Shown: positions 11,817 to 45,871 of the stretch, in pieces
How positions within the stretch are numbered: the stretch's first letter is position 1
Layout: each line of letters starts with the position of its first letter
Made by a program: the position numbers and the translations under genes
Notes under the pieces: model-generated
Told to the model about the DNA's origin: nothing
The model's database searches: none
Seen by the model: the letters and a program-made list of their open reading frames with translations, nothing else
From: Nemertoderma westbladi
Lineage: Eukaryota; Animalia; Xenacoelomorpha
NCBI GenBank assembly: GCA_032718475.1
Contig: JAUCBJ010007937.1
Span: 26,865-90,864, forward strand
Reading direction: 5' to 3'
DNA: 64,000 bases

Positions 11817-12346
11817 TGTGACGGAATCCAGGAGGGATCCCGATTTATCCGGTATTTAGTTCACGCGTCCCCGCCGTGTATAAAGAGTGAATGAAAGTAA
11901 AATGAGTTCTGAAGTTCGGTGTATAATAATAGAGGTATAAGATATAGATATATTGTATAGTATATGGAAGGCGGGATACGGTAACTAAAAGTCCCGTGCT
12001 CCCCTATCTAAACTAATTAACCTATGCTAGCACTACTGCACTGAGATAACTGAATTACTGATATTGGGTTACTGGTTATATTGCACGGTTGGCCTGATTA
12101 CTACCTAATCGATGCCTTGCCCCCCTCTGATTGGTTGATACCCTTGTTGGCGCCCTTTGGAGTGTTCCCGTTCACTCCACCTATTCTCTCTGGGTTAGGG
12201 GTTTGGCCCCTGACCCTCTATTGTGTGCTTCCTTCCCATTCTTATTGGGATGGCACGAGTTGGTTAATTATCCAATCTCGTGGCTCCCAATATTGCTTAT
12301 CGGCTTATAACTTTATGGGGTGTTAGCGGGATTGAATAAGCTAACA
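11817..12346 (-). repeat. 3' LTR of the Bel/Pao element
   Basis: Near-identical to 24663-25192; preceded on the minus strand by PPT GGGGGGGAG (12347-12355). Confidence 0.97.
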
Positions 12347-13060
12347 CTCCCCCCCATGCTATCTTCCCGGTAAGAAGATAGCATCAACCAAAAAAGTGCG
12401 CTACAATCCCGCTGGATCCCGATCTAGTATCGGGTGTGGGGTGGAATTCTTTTCTCTCGGAGTCGGCTTTCCAGGCCGCCCCCTATGGGTATGATAACGC
12501 TACCCTGTGTGCCTGGCGTCTCATGTCGGGCCGATCGCGCTCACCTCTCACGCAACTTTTGTTTCCCCAACACTTCCGCCCTATCTCTTCTTCACTCTCA
12601 CCCTAACTCTCTCACACTCGGACCTCCTCGTCCCTCACTCAGCCTCTTATTCTCCCCCCCCCACACTAGAATTGCGTCCGCACTCTCTCCGCACTCCGCA
12701 CTATTATTCCGTCCCTCAACCTCACTTCGACTGTCTCTTCCCTTCTGACGAATCTCCCCCCCCCCCTCTCGTGCCGTCGCACTCAAGAAGTGTGAAATTG
12801 TCTGGTGTCTCGTCCATAGTGCCATAGTCAGTTGTCCCCCAGTCCCAGTAGCTAATTGAGAAAGGTTGTATGACTATAGTACTTACTCCGAACGTATATA
12901 TATTTCTAGATTACTAATTACTACGTACGTACATACAAATTGCACTTATATGATTATTTTGCATTAATTGAATTTGTACTTAATAGTTCGTACATCCCAC
13001 GCGGCGCCTACCAGGCGTACCACGTCCAAGTCCCAGTCTCTCTCCCTCGACTCTGGGAAC

Positions 13061-15610
13061 CTATCTGTTCCTCCGGGGGTAGTTCCCCCTGGCGTCCTCT
13101 TCCCTGGGTCGTTTCTTGGTTATCACCGTTCCTCTGGCATCATCCGCTTTCTGCTTTCGGACCTTCGCCGCCACTTCCTTGCTGATCCCGGTCGTTGGCT
13201 CCTTGGGCGCTGGTGTTATTAGTGCCCGATATCGCTTCGCCGGTGGCCCCTCAGAGTGGCCCGGTTGTCTCCCTCTAGTGGCGTCCCATAGGATCATTTT
13301 CATTGCCTTTGGTACGTGCTCCGCCAAGAAATCCCTAAACTCCCTTCGGTTCTCTGGCGTCCACCTGTCCAGATACCTTTGCGTGTTCATCACTCCAGCG
13401 TACGACGCCGCCGTTGCTACCTCTTGGTAGGTAAACGGTAGCCTCCGCTTTATGATTTCCATGTGAGTCTCCTGATTGATAAGGAAGAAACCCCACTTGA
13501 ACTCCTGGGCCTTCATGCGCTGGCGCGTCATGGCCCCGACGTCGGCCCACTCCTCGAATCTTGTGAACTTCTCCTCGTCGTTCATCCAGTCGCACTCGCG
13601 CCCGTAGTGTCCCCGAAAGTGGCACTTTGGACATCGGTTATGCAACCGTGGACACGCCCCCATCCTGTGACTTGGTTCTCTGCAGTAGAGACAAAAGGTT
13701 CCCTGTTGGAACCGGTATAGGCAGCTGCTTTCCCGATGGGTCTGTCTCCCACAGTAGTCGCAGCCGAGTACCAATGTCTCCCGTCCCACCTCGTCTTTCG
13801 TCCCAAGCGATCTCCGCGGTCTGTGGAGTCGCTGGTAGGCGAACTTCTCTACGTTGGTCTCCCTGTCTACGTCGATCTCTCCGCCCCTCTCGGGCATCGT
13901 CTCCCCGAATACTATCCGTGGTGCCGTCCCCGGTTGCTCGCCCAACCTGATGGTGCTCCCCGCGAAATCCATCGCCGGCTCCTCGTGCACCCAGGTCCGC
14001 TTGCCGGATCTGTTCCAGAAGGCCCTCGCCCCACTGGCCGTCACCACCCTTCCGCCAACCCAGTCCGTGTCCGAGTGGCCTATCCTCTCGATGGGCGGCA
14101 TCTCTCCGAACTCGTCGTCGTCGTCCTCCTCTTCTGGTAGTGTCTCCAATCCCGGTATCCCGATGGATCCACTATGTCCCTTCCCGCCTTGGCTCTCGCC
14201 CGTAGCTCTCCATCCCTCTAGCTCCCTTAACTTCCTTGGCGGTTGGTCGCCCTCGGCGCCCGCTGGTATGGGCATCGTTCGCAACCCCGACGTCGACTGT
14301 TTCGGCGATCCCACCGTCCATCCCAATTCTCGCCCCAGAGACTCCCCCGAACTCCCTGATGAAGTCCAATGAAGCTCGTCTAGGCCCGCCTGTTCCTCGA
14401 AGCCGTAACTCTGTGTCCTGGCCTCCTCTTCCCTCTCCTCTGCTTCTATCCTCTCCCGTCTAGCGACTTCTTCCAGTCGCTTTGCTTCTCGTCTATCCGT
14501 CTCTAGCTGCTCCCATCTCTGATACGGTGTATCTGTCTCCCCGTCTACCAGATGTCGGCTGTTGTAATACACCGACTCGCCCTTCAGCCCCGGGTGGTCT
14601 ACCAGACCGTCAAAAGCCACTTTAAAGGCTCTCCTGTAGCTTAGGGGTGATCCCGATAACAGAAATGCCCCTGGTTCCCTCTCGATAATCACGGTCATGA
14701 ATAAGTTAAGCAAACTTATCATCATCCAGTCCTCCTGCAGGATATATCGCTTCTGATATACCTTTATCGCTCCCCTGCGGAACTGATATACCTCCTGCTT
14801 TCCCGGTCTCGCTCCCCACTTTAGCGAGTTCGCTAGTTCTGCTCCGTATTCTTCCCTAAACTTCCCCCAGTCCATCGGTTTGTGGCACACGAGCCCCAAT
14901 AATTGGCCCATCGCCACCGCCCCGCATTGGCCTGTGTTTTCGACTACCCCCAATCCATCCGGTGCCGTCATAGCCATAAAGACTTTCTGCATATCCAGGA
15001 GGTTGGTGGCGTCCGGACCGATGATCCTCTCCGCGTCCTCGCGAATCGCCGATCCCACTTTCGTCGTCGACTTCTCTCTTACTAAGACTTGTACCGCTTT
15101 CGGTAATCGGTCTAATTTCGGCCCGTCCTTCTTCCCATACGTCCCTAGGTCGAATAAGAAGATGTCCCCATTTGGCGCGGCCAAATGTAGGAGTATGGTC
15201 CTGGCCGACCCTGCCATTCCTCGTCTCGAACCCGCTTCGTCTTCCACGGTTCCCTCGTCATCTAGGATCATATATCCTCCTCTGTTGACGGACTCTATGA
15301 ATCTCTTCCAGTCCTTCCTCGGTGATTCCCTCAGGTATTTCGGAATCCCGAACTTCGCCTCGTCCCCTTTCACCACGTAATGGAAGTGTTGGAAAATCGC
15401 GTTGTCTAGCGACGGCGTCCCGTAGGTCCTGACCAGCCGCTGTTCGTGCATCTCTCTGAAGTGATCCTGCAGCGCTCGCGCCGCGTGACCCCTTTCCAAC
15501 CTCTCGTAGTATCCTCTCGTCTTCTCTTCCGGATGTCTCTCGGTGAAATCCACCAGTATTTCCTTTCCTCCTGACTCCGCCTTTCTCTTTCTGATCAACT
15601 TACTCGCCAT
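13061..15610 (-). CDS. Accessory ORF (849 aa): DEDD-type 3'-5' exonuclease-like domain, coiled coil and 3 CCHC zinc knuckles
   Basis: ILDDEG (ExoI D117/E119), LLHLA..IFLFDL, LP..V..L..KVGSAIRED (ExoII D192), LLDM, G..LLG..K, W, QKRYILQED (ExoIII-like); then CDYCGRQTHRESSC, CLYCREPSHRMGAC, CPKCHFRGHYGREC. No signal peptide or TM helix, so not env. Confidence 0.8.
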   Translation of the reverse strand: MASKLIRKRKAESGGKEILVDFTERHPEEKTRGYYERLERGHAARALQDHFREMHEQRLVRTYGTPSLDNAIFQHFHYVVKGDEAKFGIPKYLRESPRKDWKRFIESVNRGGYMILDDEGTVEDEAGSRRGMAGSARTILLHLAAPNGDIFLFDLGTYGKKDGPKLDRLPKAVQVLVREKSTTKVGSAIREDAERIIGPDATNLLDMQKVFMAMTAPDGLGVVENTGQCGAVAMGQLLGLVCHKPMDWGKFREEYGAELANSLKWGARPGKQEVYQFRRGAIKVYQKRYILQEDWMMISLLNLFMTVIIEREPGAFLLSGSPLSYRRAFKVAFDGLVDHPGLKGESVYYNSRHLVDGETDTPYQRWEQLETDRREAKRLEEVARRERIEAEEREEEARTQSYGFEEQAGLDELHWTSSGSSGESLGRELGWTVGSPKQSTSGLRTMPIPAGAEGDQPPRKLRELEGWRATGESQGGKGHSGSIGIPGLETLPEEEDDDDEFGEMPPIERIGHSDTDWVGGRVVTASGARAFWNRSGKRTWVHEEPAMDFAGSTIRLGEQPGTAPRIVFGETMPERGGEIDVDRETNVEKFAYQRLHRPRRSLGTKDEVGRETLVLGCDYCGRQTHRESSCLYRFQQGTFCLYCREPSHRMGACPRLHNRCPKCHFRGHYGRECDWMNDEEKFTRFEEWADVGAMTRQRMKAQEFKWGFFLINQETHMEIIKRRLPFTYQEVATAASYAGVMNTQRYLDRWTPENRREFRDFLAEHVPKAMKMILWDATRGRQPGHSEGPPAKRYRALITPAPKEPTTGISKEVAAKVRKQKADDARGTVITKKRPREEDARGNYPRRNR

Positions 15611-16044: not shown

Positions 16045-19000
16045 CTAAGGTGCCCCTTCCAATAGACAGTATTTACCTACAGCTCTCCTGTAAGTTTTTC
16101 TGTCCTTCGCACCTATCTTTCCACCTATCCGCACTTCTACCGATCGGACTCTTCCGTCCTCGTCGGAGTAGGTGCCTACAACTCTCGCCAACCGCCATTG
16201 GTTGTTGATGATAGTATCATCCGTGACGATTACGAGATCTCCTGCTCTCAACTCCCTGTTTGACTTCCTCCACTTGCTTCGTTTATGGAGCGTGGGTAGG
16301 TATTCTTCGACCCACCTCCTCCAATACTCTGCGCTTATTGCTTTAGCGACTTTCCAACTTTGGCGGGAGTGTATGTCGTCTGGGTCTACACCCCGCATAT
16401 CGATGGTCGCTGGCCTCTCCATTAGGAAATGGCTAGGCGTTAGCACGTCTAGCGACTCAGGGTCATCATTCTCCGGATATAGCGGTCTGCTATTAATGAT
16501 CCCCTCGCACTTCGCAAGTACTGTACGTAAGACGTCCTCGGTGACCATGTGGGTGTTCATTAGCTTCGTCATTAGACGCTTTGAACTGCCCACCAGTCTC
16601 TCGATGCATCCTAGTGTATGTGGTGCATACGGCGTCCTTCTCTCCCACTTTTCTTGTCGTCTCCTCATGGCTGCCTTGACTTCTTCTCCCTCCAAGGTGT
16701 CCAGGGCCTCTGCCATCTCACTCTCTGCGCCCACAAAGTTGGTGCCGTTGTCGCTGTATATCACTGCGATCGTCCCACCTTTGCGGTCCCTAAACCTTTC
16801 TAAGGCGTTAATGAACGCTGATGTGGTTGCATCTTGGGCGAGTTCTATCCCTACCGCCCGCGTATTGTTGCATACGAAGATAATGCCGTAGCGTTTCTCC
16901 ATGTGTCGCATCACTTTGATCTTTATCGGCCCGAACATGTCCACACCGCAATGCGTAAATGGCGGGTCGTGCTGTCTTACCCTACTCGCCGGTAGTGGCG
17001 CCATCTCCTGTACGGCTCGCTCCTTCTTCGCTCGTCGGCAGGTCTGGCACTGCCCCACTACCGCTTTAACCTTCTTCCTTAATTGTTTGACCCAATAGGT
17101 CCTCCTTATCTCTGTGAGGGTTCGGTTGGTGCCCCCGTGCAATATCGATTTGTGGGAGTCCCATATAATCTGGTGGACTATTGGCGATCCTGTAGGAATG
17201 ATGATGGGTTTCGGTGGTACGACTATGCTGTTGTTGTATCCCACCCTAGAATTCATTACTAGAATCCCGTCGTCATTGAGTTGTGGCGACAGCGTAATCA
17301 GCTCGCTGTCCCGTCGGAGGTGCTGTTGGTTACCGACGCGTTCCACCTCGTCACCGTAGTTCTTCCGTTGTTCATAGCGGATCACTGCCTTGGCCGCTCC
17401 TTCCAGATCTATGGTTGTCCTGATCTTCTTGCCCTTGCCGACTCCCGCAAGGAAATTCCCGAAGGCTCTCCAGTACGCCACTAGTTTCTTGGTCTTATAC
17501 CAACTAGAACTGTAGCTGAGGAGTTTATCCGTTGGGTTATCGCACAGTTCCCTTCCTGGTTGCACGTCCCTAATCTCCCTCACCATCTGGGAGTATATCT
17601 CTTCTCCATCTGAATCTCCCTCTTCTCCTTCTGATACTACTTCCGAGCCCGGGTCCACCTTCCTCATCGGCGGCCAGGCCTCCCTATCGCTCAGAAATTG
17701 TGGCCCATGTTGCCACAATACTTCCTTCTTCAGGAAAGTGTGGCGTTCCACGCCCCTCGACAGCAAGTCCGCTGGGTTCTCGTCTGTTGGGCAGTAGTGC
17801 CACCTTTCCAGTTCTGTGCTCGCCCTTATTTCGTCCACTCTATTCGCGACGAATATCGGGTATCTCGTCCTTTCGTTGTATAGCCAACCAAGCACTACCA
17901 TGGAGTCCGTCCAGTAGTGTGTCTCCACTATGTTGGGAATAGTATCCACTAGGTAGGCTGTGGCTCTTACTCCTAGTCTCGCAGCTGTCAATTCTAACTT
18001 GGGAACTGATGCTGAATCTGGCGGCGTTGACTTTGCTTTGCTAAAGGCTAGCCTTGGCTTATGAGCCCCCTCTCGTTCTACTAAGTAGAGTGCCGCTCCG
18101 TACGCTTCCAACGACGCGTCGGAGAACATGTGTAGGTCCAGATTCGTCATGTTCCCATCCGGGAAATACACCCTTGGCATGTTGTATGTTCCCATCTTCT
18201 CCAAGTTTCCTGTCCACTTGCTCCACTGTTTCTTGATTTCCTCTGGTACCTCTACGTCCCACTCATCTTTCAATTTGTATACTCTCTTGAGTATCTGTTT
18301 CCCCGTGACTAATAATGGGGATGCTAGGCCTAGGGGATCGTATATCCTTGCTATATACGATACATAGCCCCTCTTCGTGTGGATGTCTGCGCCCTCCTGG
18401 CTCAGCTGATACTTCAGTTCGTCTGTCTCTCTATCCCACACGATTCCCAATGCCTTCTGCTGGGATTCCGTTCTCTTAATCGCCATGTCCTGCCCTTTGG
18501 CTGTTGTGGGATTATCCATGGTCGATTCTGGTTTCCTGTCCTCTATGGCTTTGATAAATTCTTCCGAACTGGATTGGAATTTGGTCAGGTTAAAGCCGGA
18601 TCCTTTTAGGATGTCGCGAACCTCGCGCCCTGTATCCAGTATCTCCTTAACCGTATTTCCAGACTCCATTCCGTCGTCTACGTAGAAGCCGCGTCGAATC
18701 ATATCGACGGCCCTACTGCTGTATCTATCTTCCTTCCCCTTTACTGTGTCTCTCACTGCCATAGTCGTCATAAATGAAGACGACTTGGCCCCCATGTTCT
18801 GTACTATCATCTTATATGCTGGTATTATCGGCGGTTCTTCTTCGCCGTTATACCATAAGAAGCGTTGACTGTCGCTATCTTCTTCCGTTACACGGACTTG
18901 GTTGAACATGCCTTCTATGTCACACGTGAAGGCGTGTTTCCCATTTCGAAATCTAAGTAACACCTCTATGCCCGAATTGTAAATGTTTGGGCCTTCTAAC

Positions 19001-21012
19001 AGGTAGTCGTTTAAGCACTTTCCATCGGTCTTTGCCGATGCGTCGACTACCATCCTTAGTTTACCTTTCTTTGGATCTAAAGCCACGTGCAGTGGCAGGT
19101 AATATGTTCTATCCGTGTTCGGCTCGTCGACCGGTAACTCCACGGCCCATCCTTTCTCGACGTACTTCTTAATTGTTCTGTGGATGTACTCATTCTTCTC
19201 GGGGCTCCGTTTTAGTGTTTGTTTCAGTTTGCGGAGTCTCGTGAGTACCATCCCCCTATTGTCGGGCAGCGTTATCTTCGGTAGTTTCCATACCATTCCT
19301 ATAGTATACCATCCCTCATCGCACGTCATTGATTCCTCCACGCTTTGTAGTGCCTGTTTGTCTTCTACCGAGGTCCCGACCCCGGTTTCTTTCAGTCCCT
19401 CGAAATCTTGTCTGAGCAGTCTTTTGAGCTGCTCCTCTGCTCCCTCATCACCCATTTCCTGCATTGTCCCCGCGAACATGCATCCTGATGTCTCCGACAT
19501 CCTAAATGGTATCTTGCTCTTGATTGGACCACTCAGCGTCCACCCGAATGGTGTTAATATGGCCACCGGGTCACTCTGCTTGTCTTCACCGAAGACCGTT
19601 TGCATTCTTTCGTGGGCCGTTGGGCAGTCCATACCTACTATGATGGATACCTTCCTAACGTCCACGTCTGGGATTGAGAAGTCAATGTTGTCCAGGAATT
19701 TATACTGCTCGACCTCGATGTTGGTTGGCCGCCTGGCATTGATATTAATTGACTCTATCACTTGAATGGGGTCGATGGTTGCCCCATAGTCGCATCCCGG
19801 TGCCACTGCTGCAATTGCGCACCGTCCTGTTCTCATCTCCAGGATCTCATCTTTACTAGAGATGGTTGTTACCGCCATTCTGCTTGGCCTCGTTCTCAAT
19901 CCTATCTCCTCGGCCACCCATTCCTCGACTAATGTGAAGGCAGCTCCACTATCAACCAGCATTAGTGTTGTTACTGATCGATTGCCTTCCCCGATCACTC
20001 GTACTGGTACTACTCCAAGTAGCACCGTTCCTCTTTTCTTCGCCCCTACTGTGCTCGTCGCCATCGTTTGGCCTCTCCTTTGGCCAAATTTCATTGGCCT
20101 CTCCTTGCACTCCCTTGCTCTATGTCCACTCATTACACATCGCGAGCAGATTTTATTGCTGAACGCATAATCTATCTGATCTTGCCTAGGTAGCGCCTGC
20201 CAGTACCTGCAGTTCATAGTTTGATGAGGCGCATTTGCGTGTAGCTGGCATTTGCTCTTTGGGTCGTAGCCCTCTTTATACAGTGCATTGCGTATCGCAG
20301 TTGCGTTCGTACCAAAGTCCCTACTATTCTTATTGTTTGGGTTTTGCCTATTGGACGTACTGGGGTTATGTTTATTCGTGTTATTATTGTTTCCCTGTCC
20401 GTTCCATGATGTTGTCTTATCCTCGGCTAGCTGTGGACTTGCAGTCCCCTGCGTCGCTGCATATGGCAATGATTGCCTGAGTCTCGGTAATGCGTTCGAT
20501 GTGTTGTGCTCTGGTTTCGGTCTATGGTAGTCTGTCTTCGGTCCCTTTCCCAGGCTGTCTTCGCTATAGACTGGGTCAGTTATTAGTTCAGCCTCGTAGT
20601 TTAAGAAGTTTGACATTTCTTCTAAACCCGGTTCCGCACCCTTCTTATCTCGAGTGGAGAAGGCAATTTTCCTCCATTTGTTGCGCAGCCAGTTTGGTAG
20701 TGCCTGCGCTATCTTGGTGATGTTGTTGGACGCATTGAGCTCGTACGGCGCGTCTAGCGTCTTCAGCACGATTAGCGCCTTTTCGACTTTGTTAGCGAAC
20801 GTCTTAATGCTAACGGGATTATCCTGTAGGCCACCCGATGTTATGCCTCTCAGCGTCTGCCTGATGATCTTGGCCGGGTGCCCGTATTCCCTATCCAGTG
20901 CCCGCCATGCTGTCGTGAAGCCGCCCTCTATTCCTTGATATTGCCTCACGATGTCGTATGCTGGGCCTCCCGTGTACACTTGTAGATACTTTAGGCACTC
21001 CGCCTGCGTCAA
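16045..21012 (-). CDS. pol: Bel/Pao Gag(C-term)-Pol polyprotein
   Basis: Gag core and Zn knuckles (CSRCVMSGHRAREC), protease LVDSGA, RT (CDIEGMF, YVDD), RNase H FSDAS, integrase HHCC plus GVDMFGP/SDNGTNF/ERLV, and Pao C-terminal WRRWVEEYL..R.KW. Confidence 0.97.
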   Translation of the reverse strand: MTQAECLKYLQVYTGGPAYDIVRQYQGIEGGFTTAWRALDREYGHPAKIIRQTLRGITSGGLQDNPVSIKTFANKVEKALIVLKTLDAPYELNASNNITKIAQALPNWLRNKWRKIAFSTRDKKGAEPGLEEMSNFLNYEAELITDPVYSEDSLGKGPKTDYHRPKPEHNTSNALPRLRQSLPYAATQGTASPQLAEDKTTSWNGQGNNNNTNKHNPSTSNRQNPNNKNSRDFGTNATAIRNALYKEGYDPKSKCQLHANAPHQTMNCRYWQALPRQDQIDYAFSNKICSRCVMSGHRARECKERPMKFGQRRGQTMATSTVGAKKRGTVLLGVVPVRVIGEGNRSVTTLMLVDSGAAFTLVEEWVAEEIGLRTRPSRMAVTTISSKDEILEMRTGRCAIAAVAPGCDYGATIDPIQVIESININARRPTNIEVEQYKFLDNIDFSIPDVDVRKVSIIVGMDCPTAHERMQTVFGEDKQSDPVAILTPFGWTLSGPIKSKIPFRMSETSGCMFAGTMQEMGDEGAEEQLKRLLRQDFEGLKETGVGTSVEDKQALQSVEESMTCDEGWYTIGMVWKLPKITLPDNRGMVLTRLRKLKQTLKRSPEKNEYIHRTIKKYVEKGWAVELPVDEPNTDRTYYLPLHVALDPKKGKLRMVVDASAKTDGKCLNDYLLEGPNIYNSGIEVLLRFRNGKHAFTCDIEGMFNQVRVTEEDSDSQRFLWYNGEEEPPIIPAYKMIVQNMGAKSSSFMTTMAVRDTVKGKEDRYSSRAVDMIRRGFYVDDGMESGNTVKEILDTGREVRDILKGSGFNLTKFQSSSEEFIKAIEDRKPESTMDNPTTAKGQDMAIKRTESQQKALGIVWDRETDELKYQLSQEGADIHTKRGYVSYIARIYDPLGLASPLLVTGKQILKRVYKLKDEWDVEVPEEIKKQWSKWTGNLEKMGTYNMPRVYFPDGNMTNLDLHMFSDASLEAYGAALYLVEREGAHKPRLAFSKAKSTPPDSASVPKLELTAARLGVRATAYLVDTIPNIVETHYWTDSMVVLGWLYNERTRYPIFVANRVDEIRASTELERWHYCPTDENPADLLSRGVERHTFLKKEVLWQHGPQFLSDREAWPPMRKVDPGSEVVSEGEEGDSDGEEIYSQMVREIRDVQPGRELCDNPTDKLLSYSSSWYKTKKLVAYWRAFGNFLAGVGKGKKIRTTIDLEGAAKAVIRYEQRKNYGDEVERVGNQQHLRRDSELITLSPQLNDDGILVMNSRVGYNNSIVVPPKPIIIPTGSPIVHQIIWDSHKSILHGGTNRTLTEIRRTYWVKQLRKKVKAVVGQCQTCRRAKKERAVQEMAPLPASRVRQHDPPFTHCGVDMFGPIKIKVMRHMEKRYGIIFVCNNTRAVGIELAQDATTSAFINALERFRDRKGGTIAVIYSDNGTNFVGAESEMAEALDTLEGEEVKAAMRRRQEKWERRTPYAPHTLGCIERLVGSSKRLMTKLMNTHMVTEDVLRTVLAKCEGIINSRPLYPENDDPESLDVLTPSHFLMERPATIDMRGVDPDDIHSRQSWKVAKAISAEYWRRWVEEYLPTLHKRSKWRKSNRELRAGDLVIVTDDTIINNQWRLARVVGTYSDEDGRVRSVEVRIGGKIGAKDRKTYRRAVGKYCLLEGAP

Positions 21013-24000
21013 GTTTTTGTTAGTATTTCGTTACTATACATGCGCCGAAACTGTAGATATTCTTCCGGCCTGCTCCCATCGAATTTGAATGGTTCCACGG
21101 GTGGTAACTCGATCCTCGTTTTCAACGCATCGATCAACGTGGCCATCCCCATCGCCTGCGCTTCCAATGGATTCGATGGGTTCTGCATAGTTTCTCCTGT
21201 CTGGTGCGTTCCGTCTGTCCTATTTCTTGACTTTCTCTGGCTTGGGTATGTCATCGGGGGTAGCGGCCCCCTCCATATGTCTGTATCACACGATCTATTC
21301 TCATCCAAGGGTCTCGTTGTTCTTGCCCCTATCGGGGTATATTGTTGATATTGTGATGGGGGAATGTCACCCTGTCCCCCCCCCACCGGTATGTTTGGTA
21401 CTGGGGTTGATGTTAATATGTTGGGGCCCATGCACCTATCCGCAATAATTCCCCCCTCCCCTGGGTATATGTTATGTCCCTGCATGCTGTAGTCATACTG
21501 CTGTGCTGGTACCGGTATAGGCCTATCAGCTTCTGGCCTACTCGCCGGTATGTATTCCGCGACTTCCGGGTTTAATCCCGTTGTCCACGCCATCCTATCG
21601 CCTACATTGCCTCTCTCAGTATGGCCTATGGTATGTGCAGTAAGGCCTACAGTATGTCCTACAGTCTGCATGTGTCGCTCGGGATCGAAGTTTATTCTTC
21701 TCGAATAATCCTCCCCGCGGCTACCGTATTCTCGATCGATAGGTGTATTCCGTCGGAAAGTTTCTCTTCGACCCCCCTCTCTACTGTCCTCATCTTCGTA
21801 CCGGTACATCGCGTACCCCTCTCTCGGCGCGTAGTGCGCCTCGCCGGGTCGCATCTCTCCGGGGCGACGGCAATCTCCCGGAGTCCGACCCCACTGACTC
21901 TCCGTTCTCATCTCAACTACCGACGGCTCGCTATCCATCCTCGCTCTTCTATCGTTCGCGGCGATACCTCTACTACTCTTCTCTTCTTCTCCTTTCAGTG
22001 GAGTATTCCCGCTCGTGAGATCTCTCGTCGACCTCCCGGTTAAACCCCACTGTTCTTCTTCCCTCTTCTGATCGGGCTCGACGCTTCGTCCGCCCTCTTA
22101 CGACGTCAACCTGTCTCTCTCTGCTCGGTCGCACGCCGCTGGGGATACTCGCAACCCCCCTATTACTTTCCGTCGCCGGTTGTTGCGGTTCACCTATTTC
22201 GGCCCGCGCACCATCCGCTGACGGCTGTGGGACACTCTCTGCCCCCCCCCCCCCCTTTCGCCGCTAACTCGCTGTTGTGGGGTTCTCGTAGCCCCCCCCC
22301 CCCCCCCCACTCGCCACATCTAACTTCGCTACTCCTCACCCCGCTACTATATCCCTCTCCAGTCGACACATCAAGCCTACCGCGGTCGGGTCTATTCACC
22401 CCCGCCTCTCCCTCTGCTATTGCGTGGCCTACCAGGCCCTCTACTCCCTGCCTACCAACTATGTGGCCTACCAGGCCCTCGCTGGGTCTACCTAACCCAG
22501 CCACTCCCTGCCTACCAACTACGTGGCCTACCAGGCCCTCGCTGGGTCTACCTAACCCAGCTATTCCCTGCCTACCAACTACGTGGCCTACCAGGCCCTC
22601 GCTGGGTCTACCTAACCCAGCTATTCCCTGCCTACCAACTACGTGGCCTACCAGGTCCTCGTCTGTCTGGCCACACACGCCCGACGTGTTTATATTAATA
22701 GCACCCGTATTGGAAACGGAATTAATTTGTTCGTTCGAAATAAAATCATTTGAATTATCTTGCGCGACTACACCATCTGAATTATTTTGTAAATTCGGGC
22801 TCGCTGAATTATTTAAGTTATTTAGATTATTTTGTGTTATTGCATTACTTAAATTATTTTCTAAGTTCGGATTTGGGTTATTACTTTGATTAATTGGATT
22901 ATTTTGCGTAGCTACATTAATATTAGAATTATTTTCTACATTAATATTAGGAATGTTCTGATTTAAATTTAAATTACTACCACTAGGTAAAGTATTTCCT
23001 GCAATAAAGGTTTGATTAGAATTGTCCCATACGGTACTATTAATATTAACCACGTCTACTGTACCATTATCATTATTACCCCCCCCCCCCCCCCCCGCCC
23101 GTACGGTCACACCAGTTTTGAGTCTGTCGTGCGGTCCCTGTAAGTGGGGTATTAATAAATGTATCCACGGCCCCCGGCTCCTCAAAAATACTCGAGCCAG
23201 CCTCGCTCTCAGACTCCCCCATTTGCGCCAGTTCCACCTCACGCGCGTGTATAGCTTCATACTCTACGAGTTTGTCTCGCTGTTTCTCCAATTCTCTTCG
23301 CTCACGCTCCGCTTTTGCTATTTTATCCATAGCCTCCCTCTCGGTCTGCTTGGCCAATTCCATCTCTCTCCTAATCCCCTCCCTTCGCCTCGCCTCACGC
23401 GCTCTACGTTCACTCTCCTCCCTCACTTCACGCTCTCTGCGTTCACTTTTCTCCTTCGCTTCACGCTTCTCGCGTTCGCTTTTCTCTCTCGCCACACGCT
23501 CTTCTTGTTCCTTCAACTCTATTTCATCATACTCCCTGAGGCTCCTCACGGCCCTTTCGGCCCTCTCTCTTACCTCTCCAATCGACGCCATTTCCCTCTC
23601 CAGCAGCACTCTCCCTTCCTCTAGCCGTCTACCTACTTCTCTATTACCTTGCACTGCTAGATTGAGACAGTACCTAGCGTCTATCTCTCTCACCCGTCTT
23701 TCTTTTGCGGAGGATGTAGCAGACTTATCGTTTGTGGAGGATTCCCTCCGCCTTCCCGATCTACTAGCTTTCCCCCTCCTCCCGGAACTCCCTCCGACCG
23801 ACGAGACCGAATCCGCGGGGTCAGCCTCGGATTCGCCCTCCTCAGGTCTGTTCCAACCCACTAATTTTACTCCCCGGGCATCGACCAAGTATGGCCCTAT
23901 GTACACTGACGCTACGCTAGGTTCCATACTCCCACATTCCCATAGTTCAAATAGTTCGCTGGCAACCCCTTTTGCTCTCTCCTCGGCTAGTTCTCTCTGC

Positions 24001-24602
24001 CCAAAACGCATTAGGTAATTAAAGTGTCTATCCGAATCACCTAGTCGTTTCCTCAGTCTCACCTCGTCTATCGTTTTCCCTTTTCTGGCCTCCTCTAGTA
24101 GTCTCCGGGTCGCGTTGTAGGCCCGTCGAAGTTGCTCAGAAACCCCGACGTCCTCGTCGCCGACCTCTCGTCCGTCTCTCCGGGTTCGACGTCGTACCGG
24201 CGGCCCCACCGTCGCCGTTTCGGCGGGCCGCTCGTCGCCCTCGGCCTGTGGCTGGCCGGCGGCATCGGTACCGATATCTCGTTCGCCTCTCTGCGTCCGG
24301 GGCCGCACCGTCGGCCCCACCTTCGCCGTTTCGGCGGGCCGCTCGTCGCCCTCGGCCTGTGGCTGGCCGGCGACACCGGTGCGTCGACCCCCGTCCCGTG
24401 TCGACTCGTCTCCGTCTCCCTCCGTCCCGCTCTCTCTTTCTCTCGGTTCGAGCTCGGGTTCCAGGCCCCCCTCGTCCTGAACTGCCGGATGACCCGTTAC
24501 CGATGGGTCCGGCGTTGTGGGCCTGTATCGCCTGGTTGCGGCCTCGCGGATCGTTAGGTCTTCGTCTGGGGTCCGCGTCGGTGTCTCGCCCGATTGACTC
24601 AT
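21009..24602 (-). pseudogene. gag: Very long N-terminal Gag region, split by frame changes (ORFs 23076-24602, 22190-23260, 21009-21938)
   Basis: The last piece ends FKFDGSRPEEYLQFRRMY..TKT*; one extra A in the A5 run at ~21015 restores TKNLTQAECLKYL into the pol ORF. Other breaks lie at or near C-homopolymers (23079-23096, 22242-22288) and at ~21975-22100. Confidence 0.75.
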
Positions 24603-24652
24603 CTCGCTGGTGATTGGTGGCTGATGGTTTGGCTAGCTAGGGCAGCGGTTGG

Positions 24653-24662
24653 TTTTAGTTAC
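24653..24662 (-). promoter_or_regulatory. Non-tRNA primer-binding site candidate (GTAACTAAAA)
   Basis: Lies immediately after the 5' LTR CA and lacks TGG; exact reverse complement of LTR segment 24827-24836. Confidence 0.5.
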
Positions 24663-25192
24663 TGTGACGGGATCCAGGAGGGATCCCGATTTATCCGGTA
24701 TTTAGTTCACGCGTCCCCGCCGTGTATAAAGAGTGAATGAAAGTGAAATGAGTTCTGAAGTTCGGTGTATAATAATAGAGGTATAAGATATAGATATATT
24801 GTATAGTATATGGAAGGCGGGATACGGTAACTAAAAGTCCCGTGCTCCCCTATCTAAACTAATTAACCTATGCTAGCACTACTGCACTGAGATAACTGAA
24901 TTACTGATATTGGGTTATTGGTTATATTGCACGGTTGGCCTGATTACTACCTAATCGATGCCTTGCCCCCCTCTGATTGGTTGATACCCTTGTTGGCGCC
25001 CTTTGGAGTGTTCCCGTTCACTCCACCTATTCTCTCTGGGTTAGGGGTTTGGCCCCTGACCCTCTATTGTGTGCTTCCTTCCCATTCTTATTGGGATGGC
25101 ACGAGTTGGTTAATTATCCAATCTCGTGGCTCCCAATATTGCTTATCGGCTTATAACTTTATGGGGTGTTAGCGGGATTGAATAAGCTAACA
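24663..25192 (-). repeat. 5' LTR of the Bel/Pao element
   Basis: Near-identical to 11817-12346; the gag ATG is about 60 nt downstream (24602). Confidence 0.97.
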
Positions 25193-25286
25193 TTAATACT
25201 ATATGTTGACGGAGTATAATATATCTTACATATCTTTGGAACTTAGGCAATATAAACTAGTAGACGCCTTATGGTTCCTTATGGAC

Positions 25287-27717
25287 TGATGATGATGATC
25301 GGCTTGCACTAGGGTGCAGTGCCGGCGGCCCCAGAAACATAGCGCCCCCAGATCTTGCGGTCAGCCATACAATTTCCTAATTCATTCCTGTTCTCAAGTC
25401 CTGTGTCCTTGAGCAGGCGTTTGAGGAAAGTCATTGGCTGTCCACCACGTCTATTCTCGCCAGCAGGCTGCCACAGCACAAGGTTGTGTACAGGTTGATC
25501 CTGCCGGCGGAAACAGTGCCCAGCAAGCATTAGACGGCGTTTCTGCAGGGTGATGCTAGGTCTTGGCAATGAGATGTTACCATATTTATATAACACCTCA
25601 TTGCTTATGTGTGCATCATATGCTATGTTGTGCACCCGGCGAAGCATCCTGGTGTATGTGCCATCCAAGGACCTGGTGTCTTCAGCAGTTAGAGCCCAGC
25701 ATGGGCTGCCATAGAGCAGCACAGGCTCCACTGCTGCACGGAAAAGGCGTACCTTTAAAGAGCATGAGATGTCAGAGCTCTTCCAGATCCTGGATAGCTT
25801 GTGGATGGCGGACCAGGCTTTCCCTTTGCGAATTCGGAGATCTTCAGCAGACCTCCGAACCCATGATCCAAGGTAGCAGAAGTCGTTCACATGACTTACC
25901 AGTCCATCCAGCGATTGAATGTTATCCCGATCAATTTTCTGCTGATCTGAATCCATGTTTACTGTCAGAATTTTGGTCTTTGTGCTATTCACAAAGAGGC
26001 CAACACTAGATGCAGCCTCCTCTAAGCTAGATAGCAGCTTCTGTGCTCCTTCTAATGTCTCTGACAGTAAACCAAGGTCATCTGCAAAGTCAAGGTCGGT
26101 TAGATGTTCTGCTGGGGAACCACGTCTACGGCTACCTGATGGTGGAGATATTTCCACCCCATCAGCTTCATGAAGATCGAGTGATGTCCGCAGCACATAG
26201 TCCACCACAATAATGAAGAGGAACGGGGCTAATGTGTCTCCTTGAAGGACACCCCAGAGAACCTCAAATGGGTCTGTGTCTCCATCAGTAGTGGATACAA
26301 AGGTCGTGGAACCGTCATATACTGATCTGATTGCATTAATGATCTCATTGGGGATCCCATATGCCTGAAGAATTTGGAACATGCGTGGGCGTGACACGGA
26401 ATCGAAGGCCTTGAAGAAATCCACAAATATGACAGCCAAATGTCTGTCTTTCTTTGTAGAAACCTCTTCAATAATCCTTCTAAGTGCCAGAATGGGTTCA
26501 AAGGTACCTCTACCTTTTCGAAACCCATTTTGATTCCCACGCAAGAGTCTTTCTACAGGATCCCTAATGCGATTCAGCATTATTCTGTTGAATAATTTAG
26601 CTGCAATTGAGATTAGACTAATTCCACGATATGAACCAAAATAGGAGAGGTTGCCCTTCTTTGGAACGGGTGTTAGCCGATTAGTCTTCAGTTCTTGTGG
26701 TGCAATCTTAGTGCGGTACATTTCTGCTAGGATAGGGTGGGCTAGTTGAAGGCATTCTCTGATCTTAAAGACCTCGGGAGGCACATCATCAACACCAGAT
26801 GCCCTATTGGTTTTAATGTCATTCGAAGCAGTTAAGACCTCTTCGAATGTTATGTCACCAATTGGGATGTCTGAGAGTATTGTGTGTGACACAGGCTTTA
26901 CAGTGAAATCGTCAGTCAGTTCTCGATCATTATTTAGCAATTTCTCGAAATGAGACTTCCAGCCTGCCAAGCGGTCGGCTGGAGAATCAGCCTTCACCTT
27001 GGCAGTTGGTCGGCTTTTTCTTCCAGAGAGCAGGTTGATTGCTTGCCAGGCTTCAGCAGATTTCCTGCTTTCGTCAGCAGCATTGATAGTATCAACCTGC
27101 TCGCTGATAAGCTTTGCTTTATTAATCGAGTATTGCTTGTTTAGAGATTTCACTGAAGCTTTCACTGCATTTTTTGCAGAAGTTGTACGTCGGCTACGAT
27201 ACTCTCTTTGGGCTTTGTTCAATGCCTCTCGCAGGTCTAGAATGCGCTGGTCTGCCCAGGGGATCTTCTTCAACTTCCGTGGCTTTAGAGGAACAGTTTT
27301 CTTTGCAGCTGACTTTACTGCTGCAGCAAACTGGGTATATTTCTCACAGTGGTTCATTTCTTCATTTATGAGACTGGAATATCTATTTGTAACCTCAATT
27401 GTAAAGTTATCCTTTATAATGGGGTTTTTATCCAAGGTAGACCAGTCATGATGTGGGGTGGACTTTTTAAGACCCTTGTTTGCACGAAGGCTTAATTTGG
27501 TCTTTCCCATAACCAATCGATGGTCAGTCTGAAATGTCCGCACTGTGAGAGAAGAGCAGTCAATTATTGATCCTCTGTATTTCTTACGGAAGATGAGGTG
27601 GTCTATCTGGGACTTATGACCACTGGGTCCCACATGGGTGTACAGCTTTCCAGGTCGTTTTTGGAAATTTGTATTGGCCGAAAACAGCTCATTTGCCAGA
27701 ATTTCTCATTTCCCAGA
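25287..27717 (-). mobile_element. 5'-truncated RTE-clade LINE, copy 1 (RT ORF 25309-27633 uninterrupted)
   Basis: End of APE (QIDHLI, TDHR), RT (FVDFFKAFDSV, GVLQGDTLAP, DFADD) and a (CAT)n tail. Confidence 0.95.
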
Positions 27718-27892
27718 ATATAATTTCTTACATTTAATTATTGAAATATATTGGAGGGGAATCTCGACGAATTAACAATACCAATTATCAACATCACGTG
27801 ACATACTATAGCACTTATTTCTTCTTAAAGATTGGCGAAACCTACAAAAAAGATTTCAATGAACAACGGACTTACCCTACCTACCCATTAGT

Positions 27893-29880
27893 CTGGCCAA
27901 CTCGGTCGACTGAGTCCTAAACTTCGTCAGCAGGTGTTTCCACCCCTGAACGTCGACGCCCGACGGCCCAGCAGCGTTCCCCTTCATCCGGAGTAGGCTA
28001 GACAGTATTACTTCTCCGTCTATCCCCTCGAAGATGACGCCGTGATGTTCAGGGGCGCCAGGATACTCTGCTGGGTCGATGAGTATGGACTCATCCGCTG
28101 GTTGAGCTGGTGGATGTTTGTCACGTAAAACATCTCTCACCGTCTTCGTGACGCCGTCTTTGTCGAGAAACGACTCCCCCAACTTCATTGGCGCCCCACG
28201 ATTAGCCGCACTCAGACACCGTGTGGCTGCTGAGATGTTGCCGCTCAACATGTGGCGGACGAATGCCTTCTGTAGAGCGACGGTTTGGGAGGCGGTCTGT
28301 CGAGGTTTGGGGAGATGGTATTGTATCGCCCGGGCCTCGACCATCAGTTCCTGGAACTGACCTCCCTGCCAGCTCACCAGCCGTCGCTGTAAAACACGCC
28401 GATGTGTCGCCGTTGTTGAGTTGCGGCTGGGCTTCTGTTGGAGTAAAGCCGGCAGCAACATCAACAACGTACCGGCGATGTCTCTCAGTGGATTGTCAGA
28501 CACAGTTAGGGATATAAGACGGGTCATCTCAGGCACTACCTGGCGACCCACCGCCCCCTGAGGCATCAAAAACAAATTCGATCGCCAGTGAACGATTTCA
28601 TCGTATGTCTGGTTTATGGTGGAATAAAACTCAGACTTTGGGAATCGTTTCATCCCCCAAGTAACTTCGCCGGTCTGGGACGTTGCTGTCGATGACGTGG
28701 TGGTAGAGGGGCCCGAGGATGACGAGATGGGAGTGGGGCCAACGGAACCCGACGATGACATGGTGGAGGTGGGGCCAACGGAACCCGACAATGACGTGGT
28801 GGTAGTGGGGCCCGAGGATGACGAGGTGGGAGTGGGGCCAACGGAACCCGATGATGACGTGGTGGGAGTGGGGCCAACGGAACCCGACGATGACGTGGTG
28901 GAAGTGGGATAAAACTCAGACTTTGGGAATCGTTTCATCCCCCAAGTAACTTCGCCGGTCTGGGACGTTGCTGTCGATGACGTGGTGGTAGAGGGGCCCG
29001 AGGATGACGAGATGGGAGTGGGGCCAACGGAACCCGACGATGACGTGGTGGAGGTGGGGCCAACGGAACCCGACAATGACGTGGTGGTAGTGGGGCCCGA
29101 GGATGACGAGGTGGGAGTGGGGCCAACGGAACCCGATGATGACGTGGTGGGAGTGGGGCCAACGGAACCCGACGATGACGTGGTGGAAGTGGGGCCAACG
29201 GAACCCGACGATGACGTGGTGGGAGTGGGGCCAGCGGAACCCGACGATGTTGTTGTGGGGCCAATGGAACCCGACGATGACGTGGTGGAAGCAGGGCCAG
29301 CGGAACCCGACGATGTGGTTGTGGGGCCAACGGATCCCGACGATGTTGTTGTTGGGCCAGCGGAACCTGACGATGTTGTTGTGGGGCCAGCGGATCCCGA
29401 CGATGTTGTTGTTGGGCCAGCGGAACCCGACGATGTTGTTGTGAGGCCAGCGGTACCCGACGATGTTGTTGTGGAGCCAACGGAACCCGACGATGACGAT
29501 CCTATAGTTTGTAACGAGAGGGGGAGACAATCCCGTGGGGTTGAGGGGACCAGAGTCACGTCCAAGTCTACCAGTGTTGTGTCGTCATCACTGGTAGTGT
29601 CGCTGGCTAATGCCGATAATCGCCCCCCATCCTGGGAATAGAAGACGGGGGCCGAAACGTCGGGATTGTCATGCACTGGTAGCGGCTGCGACTGATGAAG
29701 CGCTCTGGTATCAGACAATACCGGTGCAACCGGTATTTGTGTACCAGCTTGTCCCCTATTTCTACAATTATTTTTCCCCCCAGGGGCACAGTTTGTACAT
29801 AACCTCCCCTGCCGTGCACAAACACACTTGGCGCATCGCCCCGTTGTCGCATTACAGCTGCAACAAGCCGATCCCGACAT
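27893..29880 (-). mobile_element. 5' portion of a CRE-like non-LTR retrotransposon ORF with a Ser/Thr/Gly-rich repeat expansion; truncated at the start of RT
   Basis: Cys-rich N-terminus (CCSCN..RC..CVC...C..C), YDEIVHWRSNLFLMPQG, LQQKP, L..RL..W..G, KHP and AAGPSG resemble metazoan CRE ORFs. Confidence 0.7.
28624..29500. repeat. 30/33-bp tandem repeats plus a 285-bp in-frame duplication inside the CRE-like ORF
   Basis: (GGGCCAACGGAACCCGACGATGACGTGGTGGGA)n; ATAAAACTCAGACTTTGGG occurs at 28624 and 28909. Confidence 0.9.
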
Positions 29881-30086
29881 GTCCTCTATCCTCTATATTA
29901 CATAATTATAATATGTTAATCTCAGGTATAAGCTCAACCATCAAGTATCAGCAGATTTGGGCTGGGCTGGGCTAGGCCTACCTACCGGTACACTGCAGTA
30001 CGGTACTATAATGGAATATACTATAAGTCTAAGTAATGAAATTTCTTGTTAAACAATATGTATTTTATATATAATTTCTTACATTT

Positions 30087-32515
30087 GATGATGATGATCG
30101 GCTTGCACTAGGGTGCAGTGCCGGCGGCCCCAGAAACATAGCGCCCCCAGATCTTGCGTCAGCCATACAATTTCCTAATTCATTCCTGTTCTCAAGTCCT
30201 GTGTCCTTGAGCAGGCGTTTGAGGAAAGTCATTGGCTGTCCACCACGTCTATTCTCGCCAGCAGGCTGCCACAGCACAAGGTTGTGTACAGGTTGATCCT
30301 GCCGGTGGAAACAGTGCCCAGCAAGCATTAGACGGCGTTTCTGCAGGGTGATGCTAGGTCTTGGCAATGAGATGTTACCATATTTATATAACACCTCATT
30401 GCTTATGTGTGCATCATATGCTATGTTGTGCACCCGGCGAAGCATCCTGGTGTATGTGCCATCCAAGGACCTGGTGTCTTCAGCAGTTAGAGCCCAGCAT
30501 GTGCTGCCATAGAGCAGCACAGGCTCCACTGCTGCACGGAAAAGGCGTACCTTTAAAGAGCATGAGATGTCAGAGCTCTTCCAGATCCTGGATAGCTTGT
30601 GGATGGCGGACCAGGCTTTCCCTCTGCGAATTCGGAGATCTTCAGCAGACCTCCGAACCCATGATCCAAGGTAGCAGAAGTCGTTCACATGACTTACCAG
30701 TCCATCCAGCGATTGAATGTTATCCCGATCAATTTTCTGCTGATCTGAATCCATGTTTACTGTCAGAATTTTGGTCTTTGTGCTATTCACAAAGAGGCCA
30801 ACACTAGATGCAGCCTCCTCTAAGCTAGATAGCAGCTTCTGTGCTCCTTCTAATGTCTCTGACAGTAAACCAAGGTCATCTGCAAAGTCAAGGTCGGTTA
30901 GATGTTCTGCTGGGGAACCACGTCTACGGCTACCTGATGGTGGAGATATTTCCACCCCATCAGCTTCATGAAGATCGAGTGATGTCCGCAGCACATAGTC
31001 CACCACAATAATGAAGAGGAACGGGGCTAATGTGTCTCCTTGAAGGACACCCCAGAGAACCTCAAATGGGCCTGTGTCTCCATCAGTAGTGGATACAAAG
31101 GTCGTGGAACCGTCATATACTGATCTGATTGCATTAATGATCTCATTGGGGATCCCATATGCCTGAAGAATTTGGAACATGCGTGGGCGTGACACGGAAT
31201 CGAAGGCCTTGAAGAAATCCACAAATATGACAGCCAAATGTCTGTCTTTCTTTGTAGAAACCTCTTCAATAATCCTTCTAAGTGCCAGAATGGGTTCAAA
31301 GGTACCTCTACCTTTTCGAAACCCATTTTGATTCCCACGCAAGAGTCTTTCTACAGGATCCCTAATGCGATTCAGCATTATTCTGTTGAATAATTTAGCT
31401 GCAATTGAGATTAGACTAATTCCACGACATGAACCAAAATAGGAGACGTTGCCCTTCTTTGGAACGGGTGTAAGCCGATTAGTCTTCAGTTCTTGTGGTG
31501 CAATCTTAGTGCGGTACATTTCTGCTAGGATAGGGTGGGCTAGTTGAAGGCATTCTCTGATCTTAAAGACCTCGGGAGGCACATCATCAACACCAGATGC
31601 CCTATTGGTTTTAATGTCATTCGAAGCAGTTAAGACCTCTTCGAATGTTATGTCACCAATTTGGATGTCTGAGAGTATTGTGTGTGACACAGGCTTTACA
31701 GTGAAATCGTCAGTCAGTTCTCGATCATTATTTAGCAATTTCTCGAAATGAGACTTCCAGCCTGCCAAGCGGTCGGCTGGAGAATCAGCCTTCACCTTGG
31801 CAGTTGGTCGGCTTTTTCTTCCAGAGAGCAGGTTGATTGCTTGCCAGGCTTCAGCAGATTTCCTGCTTTCGTCAGCAGCATTGATAGTATCAACCTGCTC
31901 GCTGATAAGCTTTGCTTTATTAATCGAGTATTGCTTGTTTAGAGATTTCACTGAAGCTTTCACTGCATTTTTTGCAGAAGTTGTACGTCGGCTACGATAC
32001 TCTCTTTGGGCTTTGTTCAATGCCTCTCGCAGGTCTAGAATGCGCTGGTCTGCCCAGGGGATCTTCTTCAACTTCCGTGGCTTTAGAGGAACAGTTTTCT
32101 TTGCAGCTGACTTTACTGCTGCAGCAAACTGGGTATATTTCTCACAGTGGTTCATTTCTTCATTTATGAGACTGGAATATCTATTTGTAACCTCAATTGT
32201 AAAGTTATCCTTTATAATGGGGTTTTTATCCAAGGTAGACCAGTCATGATGTGGGGTGGACTTTTTAAGACCCTTGTTTGCACGAAGGCTTAATTTGGTC
32301 TTTCCCATAACCAATCGATGGTCAGTCTGAAATGTCCGCACTGTGAGAGAAGAGCAGTCAATTATTGATCCTCTGTATTTCTTACGGAAGATGAGGTGGT
32401 CTATCTGGGACTTATGACCACTGGGTCCCACATGGGTGTACAGCTTTCCAGGTCGTTTTTGGAAATTTGTATTGGCCGAAAACAGCTCATTTGCCAGAAT
32501 TTCTCATTTCCCAGA
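30087..32515 (-). mobile_element. 5'-truncated RTE-clade LINE, copy 2, with 18-bp TSD
   Basis: Near-identical to copy 1; TSD ATATAATTTCTTACATTT at 30069-30086 and 32516-32533; 1-bp deletion near the 3' end. Confidence 0.95.
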
Positions 32516-32989
32516 ATATAATTTCTTACATTTAATTATTGAAATATATTGGAGGGGAATCTCGACGAATTAACAATACCAATTATCAACATCACGTGAC
32601 ATACTATAGCACTTATTTCTTCTTAAAGATTGGCGAAACCTACAAAAAAGATTTCAATGAACAACGGACTTACCCTACCTACCCATTAGTACTCCATACA
32701 TCAAGAAGTCTGTGCACATCTGTACACTCAACCAGAAAACCACATACATATTACACACCAGGGGTTATAATAATATGTGACGTGTCAAGTAGAAACGTAT
32801 GTTATCAGAAAAATCGAATATTTTTATGGTCGATTCTGGTAGAGAATTTGTCGGCCTATCTAGTGGTATATAACACTTATCTTCTATCATTTTCCATTTT
32901 GGAGTAATTTTACGAAAACTAAAGGGTAATCGTTCATAATTTATTCAAAATGAGTTCACAGTTCAAAACGACACCAGATATTCATTCAT

Positions 32990-42386: not shown

Positions 42387-43045
42387 TGTGAGCGTATTCA
42401 ATTCCGCCACATCAAGCCCCATAAAGTGAGGTTTAAGCAATATTGGGGAACACGAGGTCGACTATCAATCAACCTCGTGTCACCCCAACAAAGTGGGAAA
42501 GAGCGCCTTAAGCAATATTGGAACTACAAGGTTGATTACCAATCAACCTTGTATCACCCCAATAAGCGGGGACAATAGGCCCCAGAGGACATACACACAA
42601 TAGGGGTCAGGGGTTACACCCCTGAGAGAGAGGAAAGTAACAGCAGCGGGGGGGGGGGGGGGGGGGGGGGGAAACACCCCCGCAGGGCAGAGGGTGTGAA
42701 GTGAGCTATTAGCCAATGGGGGGAAGGCATCGGCTGAGTAGTGTAATGCGGCCAACCGGTGCAATATATTACCATGTCGGTGTATCATTCACTCACTCTT
42801 TAGTCAGTTAGTTAGGGTGGTACCGAGACTCTTATCACCGTCTCCGTCCACTGCCATCCTAGTACGTTACCGGTACTCATCTACTCTTTAGTCATCTCTT
42901 TAGTAAACTGTGCTTATATATTATATATTCAATGGACCAACACTCAAACCAGAGTTAATAACACCAGGACTCTTTTCATGCACACGGCGGGGACGCGTAG
43001 CCAAGAGATCAGCTGAGAAGCTGAGAAGCTGGGTGCTGAGAAGCA
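42387..43045 (+). mobile_element. Solo LTR of a family related to the 11817-25192 Bel/Pao element
   Basis: Starts TGTGAGCGTATTCAATTCCGCC vs TGTTAGCTTATTCAATCCCGCT; shares CCCCATAAAG, TAAGCAATATTGGG, ACACAATAG.GGGTCAGGGG and ACACGGCGGGGACGCGT in the same order; ends CA; no matching TSD. Confidence 0.8.
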
Positions 43046-45850: not shown

Positions 45851-45871
45851 TCTGAGCTGATTATAAAATAC

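Follow-up and report, generated by a model that had tools for sequence, protein, structure and literature searches.

A BEL/Pao element on the minus strand

The window, by which we mean the whole stretch of 64,000 nucleotides that was analysed, carries a BEL/Pao element on its minus strand and the LTR of a sister family on its plus strand:

25192-11817, minus strand: BEL/Pao element, 13.4 kb
24663..25192, minus strand: 5' LTR, 530 nt, with TG...CA ends
21009..24602, minus strand: gag-side coding region in three frames; the ATG nearest its 5' end is at 24602
16045..21030, minus strand: open frame of 1661 aa with DUF1759, protease, reverse transcriptase (RT, with YVDD), a Peptidase_A17/RNase H region, integrase and DUF5641
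13061..15610, minus strand: ORF3, 849 aa, with a putative EXD2/WRN-like DEDDy 3'-5' exonuclease fold and three zinc knuckles
12347..12358, minus strand: polypurine tract, preceding the 3' LTR
11817..12346, minus strand: 3' LTR, 530 nt, which repeats the primer segment at 11990
42388..43030, plus strand: diverged sister-family LTR, which ends prematurely, without a primer site, and keeps the U3 motifs and the R-U5 stem

The two LTRs of the element differ at three positions (99.4% alike), which argues for recent transposition, and an identical 5-bp target duplication flanks both element ends. RT and RNase H motifs are present in the open Pol frame, which Pfam matches to Peptidase_A17 (E 3.9e-40) and also to DUF5641, DUF1759, protease and integrase. 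The order protease-RT-RNase H-integrase, the BEL/Pao-specific Pol domains, LTRs within 0.2-1.2 kb with TG...CA ends, the polypurine tract and the target duplication are all those of BEL/Pao. A search with Pol returned 603 relatives, the best 120 of which are 32-38% identical. In an RT tree the element groups with 12 of the comparator loci described below and with fish, echinoderm, mollusc and fluke proteins (support 100/100). Because it sits on a long branch (2.43) and its best identity is 39%, its exact place within the tree is unsure; the clade is presumably Suzu/Sinbad or Sailor, named reference elements of which are not on the tree. By Pol domains, relatives and tree, the element belongs to BEL/Pao (Belpaoviridae). 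With a Pol of BEL/Pao type and no chromodomain match, it stands outside Tf1/sushi (Ty3/gypsy chromovirus). The gag-side frame shifts near 23080, 22200 and 21020, each next to a homopolymer run, are mutation or assembly error.

The primer-binding site complements the element's own LTR

The S. pombe element Tf1 uses the first 11 nt of its own RNA as primer, which RNase H frees by cutting between bases 11 and 12, according to passages of PMC7175516 and PMC4600332. The initial annotation had proposed Tf1-like, tRNA-independent priming here from two features:

24653..24662, minus strand: primer-binding site, flush against the LTR end and without TGG
24827..24836, minus strand: predicted self-primer core, the exact 10-nt complement of the primer-binding site

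Both features hold up. The sense strand directly past the 5' LTR reads GTAACTAAAACC, with the start GTAACTAAAA, and the nearest TGG lies 200 nt downstream of the LTR. The complement TTTTAGTTAC at 24836-24827 occupies LTR positions 357-366; within the window it occurs in the two LTRs only, and the match ends at 10 nt, compared with 11 in relatives and in Tf1. The chance of such a complement, earlier put at about 5e-4, is 4.5e-4 by base composition and about 0.001-0.002 by Markov LTRs (in 20000 of these, 7.5e-4 for a flush match and 2e-3 with offsets of 0-3); none of 400 shuffled primer sites attained a 10-nt match. The element thus shares with Tf1/sushi a primer site that complements its own LTR-derived RNA, over 10 of 10 nt and flush.

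According to the ICTV profile, Belpaoviridae (Semotivirus) have genomes of 4-10 kb and an 18-nt site that pairs with the 3' end of tRNA-Arg or tRNA-Gly (PMC8742986). That tRNA site, which belongs to the description of the family and is not what defines it phylogenetically, is absent here. ARAGORN called no tRNA genes over the window, and Rfam over 11500-25500 gave three weak matches, all under gathering scores; we therefore see no element-encoded tRNA primer. Compared with five non-host tRNAs and one tRNA-like stretch of the window, the site matched over 4 nt at best. Searching metagenomes for the primer-plus-site pattern gave 114 loci, all without Pol, ORF3 or LTR similarity, which we rejected as chance matches, and nothing matched in viral contigs searched with Pol and the Pol alignment.

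Relatives chosen by Pol show the same pattern

A Pol-alignment scan of prokaryotic genome bins yielded 16 BEL/Pao loci (L115-L130), in whose selection the primer site played no part. These are bin contigs with animal-type BEL/Pao elements and evidently represent host DNA inside prokaryotic bins, as contamination; L126, a Wolbachia chromosome, may be a misassembly or an insertion. LTR and primer site were readable at nine of the 16, eight of them in the element's clade and L126 outside it. We dropped L117, L122, L124, L127, L129 and L130, at which no LTR pair was found, and L120, in which the middle of the LTR is missing; by eye, the L120 primer site likewise begins GTAA. In the RT tree, from which L129 was excluded for its short match, L126, L127 and L130 fall outside the clade.

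None of the eight clade comparators, which derive from five assemblies, has a TGG within 4 nt of the LTR end. In seven of them the primer site has an 11-nt match in the element's own LTR, a length that 0-1 of 400 shuffles attain per element (with a loosened donor pattern and some tied donors). Six of these matches cross a predicted GT-AG splice joint (L116, L118, L119, L123, L125 and L128) and that of L121 is unbroken; L115 matches 8 nt in a row, or 10 of 11 with one mismatch. Under the strict donor pattern, five of six tested loci reach 11 nt (L116, L118, L119, L125 and L121; 0 of 300 shuffles each), and L123 and L128 reach 11 nt with the donors GTATGT and GTATAT, the pattern having been loosened only after these two loci were inspected. 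The LTR ends of L123 and L128 come from one LTR copy and that of L119 from a cut 3' copy, all chosen by eye. Fixed LTR ends matter, since a blind junction scan of L128 returned a false positive and missed the true joint. In the window element's own LTR, no GT-AG joint yields at least 9 nt or betters the unbroken 10, and there is no GT[AG]AG donor.

The match is specific to each element. When primer sites were paired with the LTRs of other elements, only two of 110 pairs reached at least 10 nt, both of them L116 with L118, and these two sisters vary at corresponding positions of primer site and LTR exon end. In the TGG-bearing controls, L126 and a gypsy-type element at 47208-51997 of the window, the own-LTR match is at most 5 nt. 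An AATAAA lies 1-32 nt past the primer in six of the eight comparators and 194 nt past it in L123; L121 has none. Because relatives chosen on Pol, without TGG, match their own LTRs and the TGG controls do not, self-priming is likely and clade-wide.

Priming by a host RNA is an alternative that we consider unlikely: a tRNA half, an internal tRNA fragment or another small RNA would prime, and the LTR complement would be regulatory cover for the site. Several lineages of Ty1/copia use half-tRNAs as primers, as passages of PMC6317226 report, and ICTV assigns tRNA-Arg or tRNA-Gly to this family (PMC8742986). Priming by half-tRNAs or tRNA fragments is represented by copia, Bianca and Osser. Against this, the site is without TGG, and across the nine clade elements the sites have very different sequences and offsets of 0-4 nt, each following its own LTR; a fixed host RNA is disfavoured because it would not predict sites that track each element's LTR.

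One further feature of these loci is an additional frame of 239 aa in L128 (4231-4947), between primer site and gag, whose motifs by eye we take to resemble an SGNH/GDSL esterase.

Predicted RNA folding around the site

Folding of the leader brings in five further segments:

24816..24826, minus strand: 5' arm of the R-U5 stem, directly past the primer core
24712..24721, minus strand: 3' arm of the R-U5 stem, within a block of 17 nt that the sister LTR shares letter for letter
24701..24710, minus strand: U5 decoy, a near-copy of the primer-binding site present in both LTRs, which may pair with the primer core locally
24668..24688, minus strand: U5 hairpin adjoining the LTR end; the single LTR-LTR difference inside it (24671) preserves a G-U pair
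24844..24857, minus strand: upstream segment, predicted partner of leader 24646-24633, which would lengthen the primer duplex

The minimum-energy fold of 24840-24598 includes the 10-bp duplex (z -2.3, 4 of 200 shuffles), stacked on a 10-bp R-U5 stem (24826-24816 with 24721-24712) with the U5 hairpin alongside. No shuffle in 1000 equals the strength of the R-U5 stem in the element's LTR, and one in 1000 does in the sister LTR, which shares U3 motifs and the 17-nt U5 block with the element and preserves the stem with altered letters. An adjoining U5 stem that supports the duplex, as in Tf1/sushi, is thus predicted, and the stem is kept in the sister. The primer-position segment differs in the sister LTR, whose predicted primer site is absent from the window.

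The fold with the decoy and the fold with the primer duplex are equal in predicted energy (-57.3 and -57.2 kcal/mol), and the primer duplex has a probability of 0.07-0.44 over ten start points and 0.59 at best. This equal-energy U5 decoy, as modelled, is the main result against a simple self-priming reading. As isolated duplexes, the primer site pairs more strongly than the decoy in nine of nine elements (here -8.8 vs -5.1 kcal/mol). In cis folds of the relatives, the duplex is dominant at one or more start points in L116, L118, L123 and L125 and at none in L115, L119 or L121; across three start points it is near zero in L115 and L121 and at most 0.14 in L119, and in L116, L118 and L125 it drops as the 5' end is lengthened.

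The decoy also bears on the idea that the match is a by-product of a long R-U5 hairpin, the post-LTR sequence being a chance or duplicated near-copy of the 3' arm with no role in priming. The decoy does resemble the primer site and folds equally stably, the sister LTR too extends its stem locally, and the match was originally noticed post hoc. We nevertheless regard this idea as improbable: the site directly abuts the end of the LTR and outpairs the decoy in every one of the nine elements, the pattern recurs in relatives picked on Pol alone, and an element that transposed so recently, with LTRs 99.4% alike, requires some primer.

Upstream of the core, the helix predicted between 24857-24844 and 24646-24633 is matched in strength by 24 of 500 shuffles and is for that reason weak evidence; such a helix suggests that the RNA extends at least to 24857. 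In the window element and in L115, L116, L118, L119, L121, L123 and L125, folds mostly place a 2-5 nt bulge and then 2-10 more leader base pairs just 5' of the core. This upstream extension is individually notable in only three of the eight tested.

Promoter motifs and the start of the transcript

The initial annotation had placed the transcript start at 24836-24832, so that the first 10 nt of the RNA would be the primer as in Tf1, and had pointed to a TATA-like TTTAGATA (24858) ahead of a TTAGTT (24834). Both motifs are present, 24 nt apart from start to start. At the corresponding position of the sister LTR, however, neither is conserved, and stronger candidates for a promoter are found 24-60 nt further upstream, which leaves that start unsupported:

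24894..24929, minus strand: alternative promoter candidate, with a TATA-like CAATATA (24929) and an initiator-like TCAGTT (24899)

CAATATA is kept in both LTRs, at 24929 here and at 42762 in the sister, and TCAGTT sits 30 nt below it in the element's LTR. A second initiator-like site, TTAGTT, is at 24862; the sister LTR has TCAGTT there, about 25 nt ahead of its primer-position segment. The initiator calls at 24899 and 24862 follow a consensus that we assume. Because a conserved TATA-like motif and initiator-like motifs lie there, a transcript start 24-60 nt upstream of the paired core appears more likely. The strictly Tf1-like version, in which the first 10 nt of the RNA are the primer, is not supported; the broader proposal of tRNA-independent self-priming gains strong comparative support from the 11-nt self-complements of seven of eight relatives, their lack in the TGG controls and the conserved stem.

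One presumed-RNA run, for which contigs only were searched (0.10 of words), gave contigs 80-99% alike, none at 99% or above, over part of U3 and gag. They leave 24461-24866 uncovered, including primer core and site. A loose contig end at 24867 proved to be an insertion variant, not poly(A) or a splice joint.

A proposed self-priming mechanism

That minus-strand synthesis is primed by a self-primer of some kind is very probable, and a fragment cut from the 5' part of the element's own RNA is a likely form of it. In the folds predicted above, bases 24836-24827 would form a duplex with 24662-24653 on top of the R-U5 stem, and the adjoining U5 hairpin would hold the LTR end at the duplex end. By analogy with Tf1, cleavage of the RNA after 24827, for which the element's RNase H is the probable enzyme, would free the primer, and the new 3'-OH would be extended through U5 and the remaining R to give minus strong-stop DNA. 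An AATATA hexamer 27 nt past the cut would leave enough, if short, R for strand transfer. Given a start 24-60 nt upstream, the primer may be a capped fragment of 34-70 nt of which the last 10 nt are paired. In the 3' copy, and up to the time of packaging, the U5 decoy would sequester the segment.

Six relatives are predicted to splice their primer together, and the window element would then carry such a primer in uninterrupted form, without an intron. In elements that bear the intron, splicing would act on the 5' copy, which would then be consumed as primer, and the 3' copy would transmit the intron; splicing of the 3' copy would create intron-less LTRs like those of the window element and of L121. 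More tentatively, and as a possibility that we do not hold probable, the whole aquatic-animal clade of BEL/Pao may have dropped tRNA priming for a self-primer normally assembled by splicing of an LTR intron, with the window element derived and intron-less and the U5 decoy acting as an RNA switch between translated and primed RNA.

The ORF3 exonuclease

ORF3 had been suggested, speculatively, to mature the primer. A profile of its family matches EXD2 (E 1.7e-12), WRN and mut-7 in the first part and zinc knuckles in the second. Exo motifs I and II align; in motif III the Y is present and an E stands at the D column. HMMER with the exonuclease region found 74 distant relatives (P0121-P0194), of which the 10 inspected are unnamed proteins, and a word-based search with the same region gave no matches. 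Pfam is nearly blind to this family, one of 27 matching an exonuclease model. The combination of EXD2-like exonuclease and three zinc knuckles is probably a mobile-element accessory family. At 2-1933 on the plus strand, the window holds the 3' end of a further element that has this exonuclease/zinc-knuckle ORF (profile E 6e-25), with its 3' region reaching to about 4600; a tRNA-like stretch at about 2795-2872, downstream of that ORF, is not called by ARAGORN.

No ORF3 homologue was found in the 16 comparator loci. This weakens the suggestion that the exonuclease matures the primer, and ORF3 is not needed for the pattern, because comparators without it show it. It is well established that a 3'-5' exonuclease is unable to make an internal cut. 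It could take part if the site paired with the 3' copy of R, or in trans with a short RNA transcribed from a 3' or solo LTR, and the paired RNA were trimmed back to the duplex by a 3'-5' exonuclease such as ORF3; the primer segment does occur in both LTRs, the family profile matches such exonucleases, and Rodriguez et al. propose 3'-end processing as a possible role of a DEDDy ORF3 (PMC5408684). This route is improbable, given that eight of the comparators that are without ORF3 display the pattern, that trimming would delete the R needed for strand transfer, that a spliced 3' copy would lose the LTR intron which six comparators retain, and that the 3'-copy segment is predicted to lie in a local hairpin.

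Relation to known systems

Self-priming by a fragment of the element's own RNA has been shown or proposed in Tf1/sushi, Tj1, Tcn1 and copia TAR elements, as passages of PMC4600332, PMC6317226, PMC7175516 and PMC3601003 indicate. As far as those passages describe them, Tf1/Tf2 (Schizosaccharomyces pombe), Tj1, and the Tf1/sushi and Tcn1 chromoviruses share with the window element the missing tRNA site, an LTR-adjacent self-complementary site and adjoining RNA structure. Unlike Tf1, a Ty3/gypsy element, the window element has a BEL/Pao Pol, a 10-nt core and a competing U5 decoy, and its RNA probably begins upstream of the paired core. Splice-joined primers, predicted in six relatives, have no described Tf1 counterpart in the same passages. 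The TAR lineage of Ty1/copia (Houba, Osr-1) is likewise a sequence-based prediction of self-priming outside Ty3/gypsy, in the part of PMC6317226 that treats it; these are plant copia elements with a Pol order unrelated to that of the window element. Self-priming has arisen more than once, as the TAR lineage, so described, attests.

With Belpaoviridae the element shares the order protease-RT-RNase H-integrase with Peptidase_A17, DUF1759 and DUF5641, TG...CA LTRs and a 5-bp duplication; unlike the family profile, it has no tRNA site, is 13.4 kb long and carries the exonuclease ORF3 in place of env. In the bdelloid rotifer elements Juno and Vesta, an ORF3 with a putative DEDDy 3'-5' exonuclease occurs in LTR elements, according to a portion of PMC5408684; unlike the ORF3 described there, that of the window element is fused to three zinc knuckles and borne by a BEL/Pao element.

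BEL/Pao replication is poorly understood according to the ICTV profile (PMC8742986), and its priming has so far been assumed rather than demonstrated. We found no report of BEL/Pao self-priming in literature mostly outside subscription journals, supplements excluded; neither 'tRNA' nor 'priming' occurs in the main texts of PMC554778 and PMC3118150, whose supplements could list primer sites. The finding is thus likely a known mechanism in a superfamily for which we found no description of it, and the window copy adds an intron-less, exonuclease-bearing, long-branch member with a conserved R-U5 stem and a decoy. If the proposed mechanism is correct, self-priming arose independently of Tf1/sushi in a large branch of the third LTR superfamily, a splice-built version included. 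The failure of tRNA-based tools to detect a primer site in some BEL/Pao elements would then be explained, and such elements would also escape control by tRNA fragments.

Other features of the window

Several other mobile elements and repeats lie in the window. The gypsy-type LTR element used as a control (47208-51997, plus strand) has a normal TGG site and identical 309-nt LTRs that end in TA instead of CA; the 1199-aa ORF of this element holds a zinc knuckle, an integrase and an internal 12-nt tandem array, with no Pfam match to RT. Two RTE-like LINE copies (25287-27892 and 30086-32690; RT and DUF6451) are 99.7% identical and have a 671-aa repetitive frame between them (27877-29892). Long inverted repeats of 20-nt units at 45868-46772, with arms of up to 258 nt at 94%, are MITE-like. 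An unbroken 1224-aa frame for an ABCC4-like transporter (55092-58766, plus strand), apparently intron-less and possibly a retrocopy, is 34-48% like its best ABCC matches, nearly all of them animal.
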